A stretch of 64,000 nucleotides of DNA from Terriglobia bacterium (GTDB lineage Bacteria > Acidobacteriota > Terriglobia > 20CM-2-55-15). This document shows, piece after piece, positions 19,124 through 24,975 of the stretch. Position 1 is the stretch's first letter, and each line of letters begins with the position of its first letter. The notes beneath the pieces were generated by a model. It worked only from the letters and a program-made list of their open reading frames with translations, searched no databases and had not been told where the DNA came from. The stretch spans positions 1,013,545 to 1,077,544 of the forward strand of contig CBDAOY010000007.1 in assembly GCA_965198225.1 (NCBI GenBank), in the 5' to 3' direction. The position numbers were made by a program, and so were the translations under genes.

Positions 19124-21577
19124 TCAGCAGCACTCGCCGGGTTCGCAACACTCAACGCTGGACAGCGCCGCGTCAGCATCCTTGGCCATCACCAGGAAAG
19201 ATCCCGCGTAAGGCTCTCGCGACAGTTTCGCAGCGGTATCGGTGCACACCTGGACGGGTTCGTTTCGGGGAAAGAGGTGGCCTTCCTCGTCGACGACCGC
19301 CTTCAGCGGGCCCAGATAGACGGCGCGCTGGCCTTCGAAGTTGCACACTCCGTTCTTCCCGAACTTGAAGCCCTGGATGATCAGCGAGTAGAAACGGTAG
19401 CCTTCGATCTCTTTCCAGAAGGTTTTCTCGACGAGCGACAGGCCGTAGAAACCCACCTGCTCGAGCATGGCGAAGTATTCATCTTCGGTCAGTGCTCCCG
19501 AGACGCACTCTCCCCACAGCCGGGGGTTGGCTTTCATGTGGTGGGGAATCTTCGATTCGGACACCGTGTCGGAGATGATCGCGCGGCCGTGATTCTTCAG
19601 AACCCGCCACATCTGCGAAAGTACGCGGCGTTTATCGGGCGAAAGGTTGATCACGCAGTTGGACGTCACGATATCGGCCTTCTGATCCTCCAGCGGAAGC
19701 TGTTCGAGGTATCCGCGCCGGAATTCGACGACGTCGTACCCGAGGGATTCGGCGACGATGCCCCGATTCCGTTCGGCCCGCTCGATCATTTCCGTCGTCA
19801 TGTCGATGCCGATCACACGACCGCTGGACCCGACGCGCTGTGCCGCGATAAAGCAGTCGATACCGCCTCCCGAACCGAGATCGACGTATGTTTCGCCCGG
19901 CTTGATGTCGGCGAACCGAATCGGGCTGCCGCAGCCGTAGGACACCTCGACGACTTCCTTCGGCAGTGCCCGAAGCTCGGCGGGGTCGTAGGCGGTCGGA
20001 CAGCACAGCGCTTCCTGAGGCTCGACGGCCGCCTGGGCGTAGAACTGGCGGACTTTCTCACGCGATCGTTCCAAGTCGACGGAGAGGACGCACGTGGAAC
20101 GGGATGTGGCGATCTCGAACCCCTCCGCTTCAATGGTTTCCATCTCAGAAAGCGATTCACCCATCGCGGCCACGACGGTCGGGGAATCGTATCCGGATGG
20201 GCCCTCATGGCTCTTGTTCTCAGAGGCGATCTGCTCGATCGCTCGGAGCAGCAGCCATTCGTGAACCTTCGAAAACGGGTCTTTTCCAAGGACGGTGCCG
20301 GAGTAGAAGAATGAATGTTCGACGTCACCGCCGCCGCACACGTAGCGCAGGTAGCATTCCTGACAGTCTTCTTTCGCGATGACGCTGGCTCGGCGCAGCG
20401 CGCGCGCGCGCGCGGATGTTTTCCAGATTTCCGCCAGCGGCTGTTCCTCGACGTTGCCCATAAGCAGTTCGGGGACACCGGCCAGCGCCGCGGAAGGATA
20501 GACGGTGCCGTCCGCGTAGACGCAGCAGCTGCTCGTGGCCGCGACCGACAGGTCCATCTTGACCCCGCGTCGGCCCTGAGCCCTTTCCCGGGCGACCTCG
20601 TAGTTGTCGAGCTCGATTCCCTTCGAAGATGCGTTTTCCAGGTATCGTTCCAGCATCTCGATGATGTCGGCGGTGAACGGACTCTGCATCTGGTCGTCTT
20701 CCAGAGCCCTGCCCTGTTTGTGGTCCCACAGCAGGTGATGACGCCGGACGCCGAGTTTGTCCAGGAACTCCGGGAATCGAGGAAGCGTGTCGAGGTTCGA
20801 GCGAGTCACGACAGTGGACACGGTCGGTTCAAACGCGGCGTCCAGCAGGGCGCCGATGCCTTCGACGGTTCGCTCGAACCCGGATCCGCGGATCGCGTGG
20901 TGGGTCTCGCGGTCGGGTCCGTCGATGCTGACCTGTAGGGCCACGTTGCCGTTCGCGGCGGCTTTGAGATTGGCCAGGGTATCGCCCCGGAAGAACATGG
21001 CGTTGGTCAGGATGACGAGTTCGCTGTCGGTGCAGATGGCCCGAACGATGTCGATCAGGTCGCGCCGTAAGAACGGCTCTCCACCGGTGATGTAAAATTG
21101 CCGAACACCCATCTGTTTCGCGTCGTCGACGATCTTCAGCCATCGATCAGTTGGAAGTCCCTCGATCCCTTTCGGGGAAGAATCCACGAGGCAGTGGGCG
21201 CAAGTCAGGTTGCAGCGGTTCGTCAGGTGCAGCCACATCTCTTGCGGCTCGTGGCGCTCGATCAACGCCCCGCGACCCGGATAGGTCGGGTGCTGGAACG
21301 GCTCGCTTCTCAGGAAGTCGGTCCGCAGTGCATGGTTGAGCAGCGTGCTGACGTCGAGCCAGGCTTCGGCCCAGTCCTTGCCCGCGTGGGACCGGTAGCG
21401 GCCCACAAGGTCCGAGACCCTCCGCTGTCCGTCGATCCAGCCGAGTATTTCGACGCCCGCTCGGTTCGTCACGATCCAGTTTGGCGCCTCGGGGTCGAAC
21501 ATCAGTCCGAATTCTCCGATCAGCCGCTCTTCGTAACGTGGGGGCGCGTGAAGTACCTGTTCAGGCAAGATAGTCAT
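19124..21577 (-). CDS. Fusion of PqqD-like domain, radical SAM, degenerate SPASM and ArsM-type SAM methyltransferase
   Basis: CNLTCAHC, TGGEPFL, SIDG; CQECYLRYVCGGGD; LCCP, SYGCGSP, DLGSGGG, GIDMT, SNCVINL, WGECVSGA; C-terminal CCEPGECC. Confidence 0.9.
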   Translation of the reverse strand: MTILPEQVLHAPPRYEERLIGEFGLMFDPEAPNWIVTNRAGVEILGWIDGQRRVSDLVGRYRSHAGKDWAEAWLDVSTLLNHALRTDFLRSEPFQHPTYPGRGALIERHEPQEMWLHLTNRCNLTCAHCLVDSSPKGIEGLPTDRWLKIVDDAKQMGVRQFYITGGEPFLRRDLIDIVRAICTDSELVILTNAMFFRGDTLANLKAAANGNVALQVSIDGPDRETHHAIRGSGFERTVEGIGALLDAAFEPTVSTVVTRSNLDTLPRFPEFLDKLGVRRHHLLWDHKQGRALEDDQMQSPFTADIIEMLERYLENASSKGIELDNYEVARERAQGRRGVKMDLSVAATSSCCVYADGTVYPSAALAGVPELLMGNVEEQPLAEIWKTSARARALRRASVIAKEDCQECYLRYVCGGGDVEHSFFYSGTVLGKDPFSKVHEWLLLRAIEQIASENKSHEGPSGYDSPTVVAAMGESLSEMETIEAEGFEIATSRSTCVLSVDLERSREKVRQFYAQAAVEPQEALCCPTAYDPAELRALPKEVVEVSYGCGSPIRFADIKPGETYVDLGSGGGIDCFIAAQRVGSSGRVIGIDMTTEMIERAERNRGIVAESLGYDVVEFRRGYLEQLPLEDQKADIVTSNCVINLSPDKRRVLSQMWRVLKNHGRAIISDTVSESKIPHHMKANPRLWGECVSGALTEDEYFAMLEQVGFYGLSLVEKTFWKEIEGYRFYSLIIQGFKFGKNGVCNFEGQRAVYLGPLKAVVDEEGHLFPRNEPVQVCTDTAAKLSREPYAGSFLVMAKDADAALSSVECCEPGECC

Positions 21578-21756
21578 GGGGTGTCTCCTGATTCAATGCG
21601 AAGGGCAAGTTCTCCGAACGAATCATTTGATCGACTTTTCTTCAGCCGATATTGTAAGCGAAGTCACCGAGATGGGAAGGGTAGCGTGGATGTCAAAGAC
21701 GAGAGAGGTGAGGGGCGCCGGCAGACGATGACGCGACCTGCCGGCGTCTGCGCCTT

Positions 21757-22415
21757 ATCCCGGGCGTCGACGCATCTCTTCCCGGGTGATGAATCCATCA
21801 TCGTCCGCGTCGAGGCGGTCGAAGGCCTCAGTCGGTCGGGTCCACTCGTCACGAGAAACCTTGCCGTCGCCGTCTTCATCCATCTGGAGCATCGCGGCTC
21901 CCCGGCCACGTCCGCCTCTGCCCGGGCGGGAGTTCTGCATCTCTTCGAGAGTGATGAAGCCGTCGCCATCGGCGTCCATGGTCTCGAACATCTGCGCGGG
22001 ACCCGGAAACTCCTGCTGCGACACGCGTCCATCGCCATCGCTGTCGAGCCCCTGGAAACGGGCTTGAGGGTCTGCGCCTCTTCCGCCTCTATCCCGGGCG
22101 TCGCCATCTCTTCCCGAATCCATCATCGTCCGCGTCGAGGCGGTCGAAGGCCTCAGTCGGTCGGGTCCACTCGTCACGAGAAACCTTGCCGTCGCCGTCT
22201 TCATCCATCTGGAGCATCGCGGCTCCCCGGCCACGTCCGCCTCTGCCCGGGCGGGAGTTCTGCATCTCTTCGAGAGTGATGAAGCCGTCGCCATCGGCGT
22301 CCATGGTCTCGAACATCTGCGCGGGACCCGGAAACTCCTGCTGCGACACGCGTCCATCGCCATCGCTGTCGAGCCCCTGGAAACGGGCTTGAGGGTCTGC
22401 GCCTCTTCCGCCTCT
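21757..22415. repeat. Tandem duplication of the EF-hand-coding 3' end of the selenoprotein gene
   Basis: 21757-22090 (334 bp, intact) and 22091-22415 (325 bp, with 7-nt and 2-nt deletions). Confidence 0.9.
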
Positions 22416-23246
22416 GCCGCGGCCGCCCCCGAATTGCCGCTGGATTTCGTCACGAGCGAGGAGACCATCATCGTTTCGATCGAGCCGGTCGAACGTCTCG
22501 CCGTCGCCCGTCCACTCTTCCCGTGAGATTGTACCGTCCTCGTTCGTGTCCATGACGCCCATACCGCCCGCAGTCCCGGGCCTCTGCCCCGGCCGAGGGC
22601 GCATACCACGCATGCCGCGGCCGCGACGCTGTCCCTGTTCCTGTCCGTAGGCGGTGATCTCCCCTCTGAGAGCGACCTCGAGCGCTGCCCTGGCTTCGGG
22701 GACATCGAACCCGGCCGGCCCGGGGCGTCCCTTGAAGGCGATGGTGCCGTCGGAGCCCACGACATAGATCCGGTCGGGAAACGCGGCGTACGCATTCGCC
22801 GTCCGGTCGTCGATCTTGTCCAGAATGGTCGGCATCGAGATGTCCAAGGCGGTCGTACAGATGTTGGCTGCTTCCTGGCGCTGCTCGTCGGTTTTGGCTT
22901 GTTCGATCAGGATGCCGTCGATAACATTCGCCGCTCCGAGGTTGCCGTCGGTGGGATGCGCTTCTCGAATGTAGACGAAGAAGAAATTGGCGCGGTCCTT
23001 GTAAGCCTGGTACCAGTTTTCGATGTCCACGACATCGCGGCGGAACGGGCCTCAGGTATAGCTGGCGAAGATCAGCGCGGTCGGTCTGCCCGTCATCTCA
23101 GAAAGCGTAATCTTTTGCTTTCCGTCTTTTGTACTGAGCGTGAAATCAGGCGCCGTATCTCCAGGCGTGGGGCCGCCGCCTCGCCGCTGGGCCGTGGCAG
23201 GGCTCACCAGGACGAGGACCAATAACGCAGACGCGAATGTTCTCAT
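22089..23246 (-). CDS. Iodothyronine deiodinase-like selenoprotein with signal peptide and EF-hand tail (Sec at codon 65)
   Basis: RBS GGAGGAG and ATG at 23246; ORFs 23052-23288 and 22089-23030 are in one frame joined by TGA, giving FASYT-U-GPF; then YIREAHPTDG, YAAFPDRIYV, KGRPGP; DxDxDG EF-hands. Confidence 0.88.
23021..23037 (-). promoter_or_regulatory. Candidate bacterial SECIS element
   Basis: CGAUGUC-GUG-GACAUCG hairpin; apical loop starts with GU, 21 nt downstream of the UGA at 23052-23054. Confidence 0.75.
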
Positions 23247-23345
23247 GGGTTTACTCCTCCGTCGACTATAGACAGGGCGGAGCGGCACGGGTTTAAGAGC
23301 GTTTTCAAATCGAATGAGGACCGCGTCCAGCGGTACGAGCTAGCT

Positions 23346-23516
23346 TCAGCCCCCTCCGCCAAGGAGGAAGCCTCCTGCGGCGCCGCGCGCTGTTCCCGAC
23401 GCCAGGTCTCCCAGGAGCAGACCGCCTATTGCGCCGACAACGGCAAACACCGCGATCGTGCCCATCTTGGCTGCTGCGGACTTCTTAGCGCAGCTTTGTT
23501 CTTCGTTCTCTGTCAC
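23346..23516 (-). CDS. Small (56 aa) Gly-rich membrane peptide
   Basis: GTG start with GAGG upstream; MTENEEQSCAKKSAAAKMGTIAVFAVVGAIGGLLLGDLASGTARGAAGGFLLGGGG; below the ORF-track cut-off. Confidence 0.45.
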   Translation of the reverse strand: MTENEEQSCAKKSAAAKMGTIAVFAVVGAIGGLLLGDLASGTARGAAGGFLLGGGG

Positions 23517-23652
23517 GAAAGAGCCTCAGTTTCCCCGTTCAGTCGATGATACCGGTGTTGTAACGGGATTTCTTCAAAAAAGCCGGGGTCTGCCGGGGCG
23601 TCGCCCGGATGCGGTAACATTAGGCTGACTTGAGTGTGATGGAGGCAGGTTC

Positions 23653-23931
23653 ATGAAAGCAATATGGCAGGGCGCGGTCTTGGCCGAAAGCGAAGATACC
23701 ATCGTCGTGGAAGGGAACCACTACTTCCCACCGGAGTCGACCGACACCTCCCACTTTCGGCAGAGCCGGACCCACACGGTCTGCCCGTGGAAAGGACAGG
23801 CCAGCTACTACGACATCGTCGTCGACGGCGACACCAATAAGGACGCCGCCTGGTTCTACCCCGAGACGAAGGAAGCCGCCGACCAGATTCGCGGTTATGT
23901 CGCGTTCTGGCACGGAGTCGAAATCACCTAA
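23653..23931 (+). CDS. DUF427 (NTP_transf_9) protein
   Basis: VEGNHYFPP, TVCPWKGQASYY, AAWFYP, GYVAFW; RBS GGAGG. Confidence 0.92.
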   Translation: MKAIWQGAVLAESEDTIVVEGNHYFPPESTDTSHFRQSRTHTVCPWKGQASYYDIVVDGDTNKDAAWFYPETKEAADQIRGYVAFWHGVEIT

Positions 23932-24058: not shown

Positions 24059-24364
24059 ATGCCTCGAAACTACATGACATATCCGTCCGGTCTGGTCCTG
24101 CAGGCAATCGCTTCGGGGCATCGGTATGGTTTCGATGTGATGGATGTGACGGGATTGCCGAGTGGTACGGTTTACCCGGCACTTCGGAAGCTGGAACGAG
24201 AGGGCTATGTCCGTTCCAGGTGGGAAGGCGAAGATGTGGCCCGCCAGGCAGGGCGTCCACCGCGGCGTTACTACGAGGTTAGCGGCCCTGGCTCGGCGGC
24301 CTTGACCCAGCTGCTGAAACGGTTTCCAGGACTGGCCCGGGCCCTTGCCGCGGAGGTCTTGTGA
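24059..24364 (+). CDS. PadR-family transcriptional regulator
   Basis: YGFDV, GTVYPALRKLE, GRPPRRYYEV. Confidence 0.92.
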   Translation: MPRNYMTYPSGLVLQAIASGHRYGFDVMDVTGLPSGTVYPALRKLEREGYVRSRWEGEDVARQAGRPPRRYYEVSGPGSAALTQLLKRFPGLARALAAEVL

Positions 24365-24975
24365 GGTGGGCAGGCGGCGAGCGGTCTCTCCGCGTCTGCC
24401 TGTTGTGGATTCGCGCTCTGTCGTTCCTCGTCCCGCCCCCGGGCCGGGACGAATGGATGCGGGAGTGGCGTGGCGAGCTTCTGCATCACTGGAGTGAGTT
24501 CGAGACAGGAGTTCAAAAGTCCCGTGCTGCAAGATTCGATTTGTTCCTACATTCGATGGGCGCCTTGCCTGATGCACTGTGTCTGCTGCGTCAGGAGTGG
24601 AGACTGGACATGCTGATGCAGGATCTGACCTATGCGGTACGGACGCTCGGCGCTCGACCGGGCTTCACCTTCGTAGTGATTTTCATTCTGGCGCTGGGTA
24701 TCGGGGCCAACACCGTCGTGTTCAGCGTCGTCGATGCCGTCCTGTTTCGACCCCTACCGTTTCCCGAGCCGGAGAGGCTGGTTGCGATCTGGGACGAAAA
24801 CACCCAAAAGTCGATGCTTCGTCAGGGTCCGGCGCCCGGCAATCTGCTGGACTGGCGTGACCAGTCACGGGTGTTCGATGGTATCGGAGCCTGGTACGCG
24901 GGCGAGCCCAGGACTGTGCGCGACGAGTCCAGTGCGGAGAAAGTGTCCGCCACTATAGGATTTTATTATGTCTAA
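24361..24975 (+). pseudogene. ADOP/MacB-like ABC permease truncated by element insertion
   Basis: QDLTYAVRTL..RPGFT, LALGIGANTVVFSVVDAVLFRPLPFPEPERLV; ends after about 200 aa at an abrupt switch to AT-rich sequence near 24952. Confidence 0.85.

Follow-up and report, generated by a model that had tools for sequence, protein, structure and literature searches.

Bacterial deiodinase-like selenoproteins, together with cysteine homologues and a bacterial selenocysteine insertion sequence (SECIS), were reported from the Sargasso Sea in 2005 (Zhang, Fomenko & Gladyshev, PMC1088965). According to the accessible part of that paper, a redox function other than hormone deiodination was expected for them because thyroid hormones are not expected in bacteria. 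The family is listed with the motif UxxC (U, selenocysteine) in the accessible parts of two reviews of 2022 and 2026 (PMC9312934, PMC13188914), and NCBIfam holds a hypothetical equivalog model, NF038285 'deiodinase family protein', with the layout lipoprotein signal, DUF4440 and deiodinase-like domain. Here we analysed a gene of this kind, located on the minus strand (22089..23246) of the window, a stretch of 64,000 nucleotides from the Terriglobia bacterium assembly GCA_965198225.1 (contig CBDAOY010000007.1, positions 1,013,545 to 1,077,544) in whose coordinates all positions are given. The best explanation as a whole, to which we assign a probability of roughly 0.8, is one gene for an exported selenoprotein in which an in-frame UGA is decoded as selenocysteine (Sec) and a deiodinase-like catalytic domain is followed by EF-hands.

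The protein has in common with the 2005 family the PF00837 domain, the catalytic Sec, the Cys homologues, a SECIS element past the UGA and a function thought to be redox. It differs from the UxxC motif of the reviews by reading U-G-P-F with no Cys at position +3, and neither a signal peptide nor an EF-hand fusion is mentioned for the family in the accessible text of the three papers (PMC1088965, PMC9312934, PMC13188914); the term 'EF-hand' occurs 0 times in the 2026 review (PMC13188914). A literature search of titles and abstracts, without supplements, returned no deiodinase/EF-hand selenocysteine fusion from bacteria, and a search on acidobacterial selenoproteins gave nothing relevant to the family. 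The match to NF038285 scored 247 bits against a cut-off of 250 and covered only positions 174-344 of the 347 in the profile. The protein thus matches the catalytic domain of the model but lacks the DUF4440 half that precedes it, and has an EF-hand tail at its C-terminus instead; the complete NF038285 layout is found in its nearest relatives (genomes G022 and G006) in the domain tree presented below. The preliminary description of this DNA had called the protein a hidden selenoprotein. The novelty which this implied was not upheld, because the family has been known since 2005 (PMC1088965), is covered by the reviews (PMC9312934, PMC13188914) and is modelled by NF038285.

The open reading frame listing contained two separate frames on the minus strand, 23052..23288 and 22089..23030. 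When TGA was translated as U, they merged into one frame of 385 codons, as the preliminary description had proposed, across a single TGA at 23054-23052, and a six-frame search returned a single open frame of 416 codons with '1 TGA'. The coding sequence as assembled (22089..23246) starts at the ATG at 23246, comprises 385 codons with this one in-frame TGA and ends at a TAG (22091-22089). A Shine-Dalgarno-like GGAGGAG, read from the sequence, lies 7 nt 5' of the ATG (23254..23260). The product reads MRTFASALLVLVLVSPATAQRR...LIFASYT-U-GPFRRD...YIREAHPTDGN...YAAFPDRIYV...KGRPGPAGF, followed by a Gly/Arg-rich stretch and six D-x-D-x-D-G loops. The motifs quoted earlier (IFASYT-U-GPF, YIREAHPTDG, YAAFPDRIYV and KGRPGP) were all recovered in their places, the last three starting at residues 92, 153 and 172. 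Residues 1-20 (23187..23246) are signal-peptide-like by eye, with MR, a hydrophobic run and ATA followed by Q; this N-terminus, MRTFASALLVLVLVSPATA-Q, resembles a signal peptide of the Sec (secretory) type, and the same layout was found in the orthologues. The protein is therefore probably exported, with a predicted cleavable-looking signal peptide. The catalytic domain (residues 27-190, 22677..23168) contains the UGA codon as residue 65 (23052..23054) in S62-Y-T64-U65-G-P-F, assigned to Sec by column conservation, and Cys130 (22857..22859), the sole Cys of the mature protein.

We looked for the Sec machinery in the source genome (6.4 Mb, 9 contigs). A single tRNA-Sec was found (72.9 bits, anticodon TCA), the next-best matches being tRNA-Ser, and selB (387 bits), selA (537 bits) and selD (372 bits) were all detected above the curated cut-offs, so that the four genes expected for a selenoprotein producer were present by profile and tRNA searches. 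In this genome, the selD match (L018, G000:C9:419380-420303, minus strand) holds itself one in-frame TGA, and the selenophosphate synthetase is probably a selenoprotein in its own right.

The conservation of the codon was examined at three depths. In 40 related genomes, every one of the 17 matches with E <1e-30 carried an in-frame TGA, and at 15 of the 20 loci examined it stood in the same column, within S[YFHV]T-U-[GP]PF; the other five were weak matches without a hit to the motif pattern. When 301 genomes of the phylum were sampled, TGA was present, irrespective of its column, in 30 of the 31 deiodinase-domain matches outside the source genome (27 of 28 without the three that come from the unpublished genomes G085, G188 and G062). 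Finally, 1.84 billion cluster representatives were searched exhaustively, with 3348 hits at E <=0.001, 1133 at 1e-10 and 76 at 1e-30, and the column counts given here and below refer to the best 149 of the 3348 (one row was dropped for the aligner). The Sec column held Cys in 128, a gap in 9, Ser in 6, Trp in 3, Asp in 2 and Leu in 1. The nine gap rows are fragments called from past the TGA, and the three Trp rows might come from Sec genes for which a gene caller read TGA as Trp. UGA or Cys thus stands at this codon in most homologues, and, with the Sec machinery present, neither of the two refuting conditions named in the preliminary description holds. U65 aligns to the Sec position of the iodothyronine deiodinases Dio3 and Dio2.

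The TGA was also recovered in public sequence data, where all runs were compared as contigs, so that depth is uninformative on expression. Logan contigs of the DNA runs X1, X2 and X6, each from a different study, span the TGA and the following hairpin with no difference. An RNA library (X11) labelled 'sponge metagenome' yielded contigs 100% identical to 21766-21938 and 22930-23090, the second of which spans the UGA and the hairpin; a contig from an RNA library is no proof of transcription, and this point has to be set against the reading as an expressed gene. The part that this library leaves uncovered carries no weight as evidence. Taken with the alignments, these data indicate that the UGA at 23054-23052 is decoded as Sec by the genome's own selA, selB, tRNA-Sec and selD, as far as can be predicted from sequence.

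Past the UGA, we found the hairpin that had been noticed in the preliminary description, with a 7-bp stem (CGAUGUC/GACAUCG) and a GUG loop (23021..23037, loop 23030-23028). Counted from the U of the UGA, the two strands of the stem occupy nt 18-24 and 28-34 (window 23037-23021); the stem begins 14 nt and the loop 21 nt past the UGA. The minimum-free-energy fold contains this hairpin. As described for bacterial SECIS elements (PMC1088965, accessible part), such an element is a stem-loop that follows the UGA directly on its 3' side and has G in its small apical loop, and the loops observed start with G (GUG, GGU, GGC, GGUCA) or have G in second position (CGUGAU). In an alignment of 15 homologous stretches, 13 of them distinct, 87.9% of 91 pair cells were paired, compared to 15.4-46.2% with the partner slid, and the observed pairing or covariation score was reached by 0 of 500 shuffles. 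Three of the seven pairs (19-33, 20-32 and 21-31) change on both sides. As the encoded protein is altered along with the stem (RRDV.DIE to M[NA]SVVDTE), these changes argue for selection on the RNA.

Several observations on the hairpin weigh in the other direction. Its folding energy is within chance, with z = -0.74 and 39 of 200 shuffles as stable, and the z-scores of single sequences were likewise low (-0.74, -0.03, -1.07, +0.17 and -0.44), only two falling at -1.6 to -2.1 (extreme -2.06). Two of the five covariation measures were unremarkable, being reached by 225 and 481 of 500 shuffles. The slid control is biased towards the hairpin, whose structure was derived from the sequence of the window itself, the compensatory changes stem from few lineages, and in two distant homologues the hairpin stands in another register. 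A scan of 21500-23700 against Rfam gave nothing meaningful (best E 0.22) and no bacterial SECIS match. We consider nevertheless that this conserved hairpin with 7 bp and a 3-nt loop is a SECIS-like element predicted to help Sec decoding.

The catalytic domain was assigned to the deiodinase family by sequence and by structure, as had been suggested from its motifs. The Pfam profile PF00837 (T4_deiodinase) matched residues 27-190 over positions 74-234 of 237 with an E-value of 4.5e-24 and 85.5 bits against a cut-off of 27. Weak matches to AhpC/TSA (PF00578, 29.1 bits, cut-off 26) and Redoxin (28.4 bits) were also obtained, the former overlapped by the far stronger PF00837. Among solved structures, the best sequence matches were mouse Dio3 (4tr3, E 1.7e-17) and Dio2 (9h48, E 1.3e-11). 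An AlphaFold2 model built on a 23-row alignment had a mean predicted local distance difference test (pLDDT) score of 78.9, with values above 90 for most of the catalytic domain, of 75-93 for the EF pairs, and below 50 for the N-terminus and linkers (residues 1-21 and 209-230). Searched with Foldseek, this model retrieved 4tr3 first (E 3.8e-12, root-mean-square deviation 2.2) and 9h48 second (E 7.3e-11), with a target-normalised template-modelling (TM) score of 0.77, and then ResA/TlpA-like oxidoreductases and AhpE.

The likeness to Dio1-3 (4tr3, 9h48) comprises the fold (TM 0.77), 31% identity to Dio3, S-x-T-U, and the motifs Y-I-x-E-A-H-P, P/F-[DE]-R-[IL]-Y and G-x-G-P-x-G-[FY]. A proton relay has been proposed for the deiodinases, formed in Dio2 by Ser127, Thr129, Tyr157, Glu160, His162 and His182 (PMC11592359, accessible part), and five of these six residues are present here as S62, T64, Y92, E95 and H97. 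Residues Y92, E95, H97, P157 and D143 were invariant in the 23 sequences, and among the best 149 homologues the columns of residues 92, 95 and 97 held Tyr, Glu and His in 143, 145 and 141, respectively. There are also differences from Dio1-3. The sixth relay residue (His182 of Dio2, His219 of Dio3) is Ala117, and its column held Pro in 113, Thr in 14, Ala in 11 and His in only 9 of the 149; the absence of this second His weakens a straight transfer of the animal deiodinase mechanism. The Trp of the DGW motif is Asn, with Trp in 83 of the 149, and the column equivalent to Arg275 holds Pro. No N-terminal membrane anchor of the deiodinase type was found, a short signal-peptide-like N-terminus replacing it, while more distant bacterial homologues (L034, L036, L039) have hydrophobic N-terminal segments. 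The distal Cys stands in another column, an EF-hand tail is added, and no iodothyronines are expected in the habitat.

A working mechanism can be proposed on this basis. The selenolate of Sec65, located outside the cytoplasm, would attack a small electrophilic substrate, for which a hydroperoxide or a similar oxidant is our best guess and a halogenated phenolic compound the main alternative, and the conserved network of Ser62, Thr64, Tyr92, Glu95 and His97 would assist the attack. Cys130, a candidate resolving cysteine, would convert the oxidised selenium to a selenenyl-sulfide, which an external thiol reductant would reduce again in a peroxiredoxin-like cycle; a cycle of this kind has reportedly been proposed for deiodinases. 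The EF-hands would be Ca-loaded in a Ca-rich extracytoplasmic medium, where they could serve folding, solubility or tethering, or could gate the activity. The column of Cys130 holds Cys in 109 of the 149 homologues. Against this scheme, it holds Phe or another residue in the remaining 40, and Cys130 is not aligned with the distal Cys of Dio2 or Dio3. It must also be counted against the proposal that selenium incorporation, export, Ca binding and substrate are all predictions made from sequence. A peroxide or other small oxidant is put forward tentatively, with a likelihood somewhat short of even; halogenated phenolics appear doubtful and protein disulfides more doubtful still, something else accounting for the remainder. 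As for the peroxiredoxins themselves (AhpC/TSA, AhpE), they share with this protein and with ResA/TlpA the thioredoxin-fold scaffold (structural matches at E ~1e-7 to 1e-8), but this protein contains the insertion specific to deiodinases and the E-A-H-P block, and neither PxxxTxxC nor CxxC. The peroxiredoxin motif is TxxC, and the T-U adjacency of this protein differs from it.

The doubtful dehalogenase reading, already suggested in the preliminary description, would have Sec65 abstract I+ or Br+ from halogenated phenolics, such as metabolites derived from halotyrosine, as animal deiodinases do with iodothyronines. Such a reductive dehalogenase would agree with Dio3 and Dio2 being the closest solved structures and sequences, with the PF00837 score of 85.5 bits compared to 29.1 for AhpC/TSA, and with the source of the one RNA library, labelled 'sponge metagenome', that contains identical contigs. 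Sponges are rich in brominated tyrosine derivatives. However, this inference of habitat rests on a single labelled run, and the conservation of five of the six relay residues (PMC11592359, accessible part) is offset by the Ala at the position of His182, by the Asn in place of the DGW Trp and by the Pro at the Arg275-equivalent position. Moreover, a literature search found nothing linking bacterial deiodinase-like proteins to sponge dehalogenation, and the authors of the 2005 report expected another function (PMC1088965, accessible part).

Somewhat less probable is a role as a thiol-disulfide oxidoreductase outside the cytoplasm with proteins as substrates, as for ResA or TlpA in the maturation of cytochromes or envelope proteins. 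ResA and DsbE/TlpA-like proteins are the next structural matches after Dio3 and Dio2 (E ~1e-8, target-normalised TM >=0.8), appear also among the sequence-search matches and are likewise exported. But the protein has no CxxC or UxxC, its U-G-P-F motif being without a second Cys or Sec nearby; the invariant Y-I-x-E-A-H-P block is a deiodinase feature; and the ResA-type families scored 24.9 bits against a cut-off of 170.

The tail following the catalytic domain was then examined. A linker containing a Gly/Arg-rich stretch (22551..22676; pLDDT <50 at residues 209-230) leads to the first EF-hand, and the EF-hand region (22101..22550), identified by Pfam and by loop pattern, is made of three loop pairs joined by disordered Gly/Arg linkers, with 37 G and 27 R within the last 190 residues. 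Five canonical EF loops of 12 residues are found at residues 233-244, 256-267, 293-304, 316-327 and 348-359, and the sixth (371-382) is broken in this assembly, where it reads DADDDGFGKRWR without Glu at position 12. The pairs are 233-244/256-267, 293-304/316-327 and 348-359/371-382, the adjacent loops being 11 residues apart. All six loops are intact in the sibling protein P0268 and in the orthologues. On the tail, the Pfam models EF-hand_5 (75 bits), EF-hand_1 (68), EF-hand_6 (65) and EF-hand_7 (59.5) were all above their cut-offs. The signal-peptide-like N-terminus and the EF-hand tail of the preliminary description are both present, the former by eye. A working analogy for Ca-gated selenol chemistry, but not a relative, may be SELENON, a protein of the endoplasmic reticulum whose redox activity is switched by Ca binding (PMC10650576, accessible part). 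Both combine a Sec thioredoxin-like domain with EF-hand structure in a non-cytosolic Ca-rich compartment. SELENON differs in that it was not homologous in any search, has one atypical EF-hand and another Sec motif, and is an endoplasmic reticulum membrane protein.

A role of the tail in binding another metal, for example lanthanides as in lanmodulin, for delivery to or use in the catalytic domain, seems very improbable. Lanmodulin has short spacing between its loops, and Pro at EF-loop position 2 is its hallmark. The spacing of only 11 residues between adjacent loops here is short as in lanmodulin, and the NCBIfam lanmodulin model NF053806 gave a weak match (E 2.2e-10, 40.7 bits), which is far below its cut-off of 135; position 2 is T, R, S, A, E and A, without Pro in any of the six loops, and the generic EF-hand Pfam models are well above their cut-offs.

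The least credible alternative, that the TGA is an ordinary stop separating two small genes or splitting a pseudogene by a nonsense mutation, agrees with gene callers stopping at the TGA, with database entries that begin past it (P0001, P0003, P0006, P0267) and with TGA being also a normal stop in these genomes, where the G005 orthologue ends in TGA, but it is contradicted by the position of the TGA mid-way in one thioredoxin fold at the catalytic position, by flanks 70-75% identical on both sides of it in 7 orthologues, by a second strain contig that retains it in spite of 28 differences over 376 nt, and by the shared column (TGA at 15 loci, Cys in 128 of 149) and the complete Sec machinery.

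The selenoprotein reading leaves the 3' end of the gene to be considered, where the assembly contains an exact tandem repeat of 300 nt with a period of 325. Copy 1 (22116..22415, minus strand, 100% identity) is in frame and encodes EF-hands 3 to 6. Their second copy (21791..22090) lies past the stop and, the period of 325 being 3n+1, is out of frame. The junction between them (22091..22115), which has deletions of 7 nt and 2 nt compared to the terminal copy, creates the TAG at 22089 and the broken sixth EF loop. In the contigs of X1, X2 and X6, we found that 21790 adjoins 22116 directly, with 325 nt skipped, and that the junction is spanned by none of these contigs. Although De Bruijn contigs can in principle collapse repeats, which would count against this comparison, no junction k-mers were present in the three runs. 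In the same way, the 90% cluster of the protein has three members, the window's entry of 313 residues and two of 316 residues from other assemblies, one of them otherwise identical; both 316-residue siblings (P0001, P0268) end in ...DADDDGFITREEMRRRPG, and orthologues with six EF-hands end similarly. The natural gene thus most likely ends at the TAA at 21757-21755, with 388 residues and six intact EF-hands, its probable 3' end (21755..21790, minus strand) reading ...GFITREEMRRRPG before the TAA, as the sibling proteins and the orthologues indicate. The 325-nt duplication is likely an assembly artefact, or else a rare variant, and the natural gene probably lacks it. We also considered that programmed +1 frameshifting might lead into the second copy of the repeat, and rejected this because neither the public contigs nor the sibling proteins contain the duplication. 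Directly past the TAA, folding revealed a GC-rich hairpin (21716..21746, minus strand), a possible terminator without a T-run; the region 21690-21760 folds at -27.7 kcal/mol (z = -2.24, 4 of 200 shuffles as stable), and a terminator scan did not call the hairpin. A promoter scan found no promoter-like site 5' of the ATG, its sole site (21678-21651) being downstream of the gene. For annotation, it is of note that gene callers split such genes at the UGA and that the duplication would mislead the annotation of the 3' end.

We then compared the architecture of the protein with that of its relatives. Seven orthologues, which belong to 3 genera of the same family, share the whole arrangement (signal peptide, catalytic domain, Gly/Arg linkers and six EF-hands). 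EF-hands are absent from other Sec forms in the class, which carry either a lipoprotein signal and DUF4440 or an N-terminal hydrophobic segment, and none of the 31 phylum-level matches in the 301-genome sample reached beyond query residue 224. On a wider scale, the EF-hand is the commonest partner domain, as EF-hand Pfam domains were detected in 53 of 146 of the best cluster representatives (three more of the 149 rows were dropped for size). The architecture, described as unusual at first, is thus unusual only against animal deiodinases, the EF-hands of these close representatives being mostly N-terminal and combined with Cys. By loop pattern, at least 2 EF loops lay N-terminal of the domain in 38 and C-terminal in 5 of the best 149, and the N-terminal-EF forms that were read (8 of 14 proteins examined) all have Cys. 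Metagenomic proteins of this Cys type (P0022, with the JGI name 'Iodothyronine deiodinase/EF hand') contain the same two domain types and are exported-looking, but with the domain order reversed, Cys in place of Sec and a position elsewhere in the domain tree.

This tree was built with FastTree from 151 domain sequences, leaving out 10 fragments of <140 residues, and was rooted at the midpoint. The seven Sec proteins with C-terminal EF-hands formed one clade (support 0.962), sister to the two EF-less Sec forms of G022 and G006 (0.983) and then to EF-less Cys forms, and the N-terminal-EF forms were placed elsewhere. The Sec form with a C-terminal EF tail is thus a small acidobacterial clade. 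Since its nearest relatives have no EF-hands, the tail looks, in this one quick tree, like a separate acquisition. Two observations were made in the G005 genome. In its orthologue (L030:433-2100, minus strand), TGA serves as the Sec codon and also, after ...MRSGRGQRP, as the stop codon, a context-dependent reading within one gene. About 4 kb from it, a second deiodinase-like gene (L049:5650-6330, plus strand) has two in-frame TGAs seven codons apart (...LHUFLVPSTUPPF...), and may represent a double-Sec form, a gene with a frameshift or a pseudogene.

Concerning the gene neighbourhood, the radical SAM/ArsM-like gene downstream and, upstream, the PadR gene and an open reading frame of 92 residues were shared only with the two same-genus genomes having long flanks, and not with four genomes of two other genera. 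As no neighbour is conserved beyond the genus, the context gives no functional hint and no operon partner can be deduced, which deprives the proposed function of support from this side. The downstream neighbour (19124-21577, minus strand) encodes 817 residues, a fusion of radical SAM/SPASM and arsenite-methyltransferase-like parts that ends in CCEPGECC; it scored 241.8 bits with NF008823 (cut-off 263), and the related NCBIfam models include ArsM selenoprotein variants. A small upstream frame (23346-23516, minus strand) encodes 56 residues with a Gly-rich hydrophobic segment and has no NCBIfam match, and a similar peptide lies upstream in L024. Further on, 24059-24975 (plus strand) contains a PadR-type regulator followed by a permease-like frame, conserved in the genus, with a match of 36 bits to TIGR03433 (padR_acidobact) that is below its cut-off. 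Pairing of PadR with a permease-like protein is typical of Acidobacteriota.

For twenty years, deiodinase-like selenoproteins of bacteria have been listed in catalogues without an assigned function. The locus described here adds a well-supported Sec form with a clean SECIS and a conserved Sec/Cys alternation, and it offers two leads that the accessible text of the selenoprotein reviews does not discuss, the extracytoplasmic look of the protein and the EF-hands as commonest fusion partner in two domain orders. Together, these two features point to a possible Ca-dependent chemistry outside the cell. It may even be, improbable as we consider it, that bacterial deiodinase-like domains habitually associate with EF-hands, which were gained on at least two occasions (N-terminal with Cys, C-terminal with Sec) and mark exported Ca2+-gated selenol/thiol enzymes, and that the Sec form would serve in a sponge-associated acidobacterial clade as a Ca-loaded extracellular dehalogenase stripping Br or I from the halogenated tyrosine-derived metabolites of the host. 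If this were true, the Sec form would be the microbial counterpart of thyroid-hormone deiodination.

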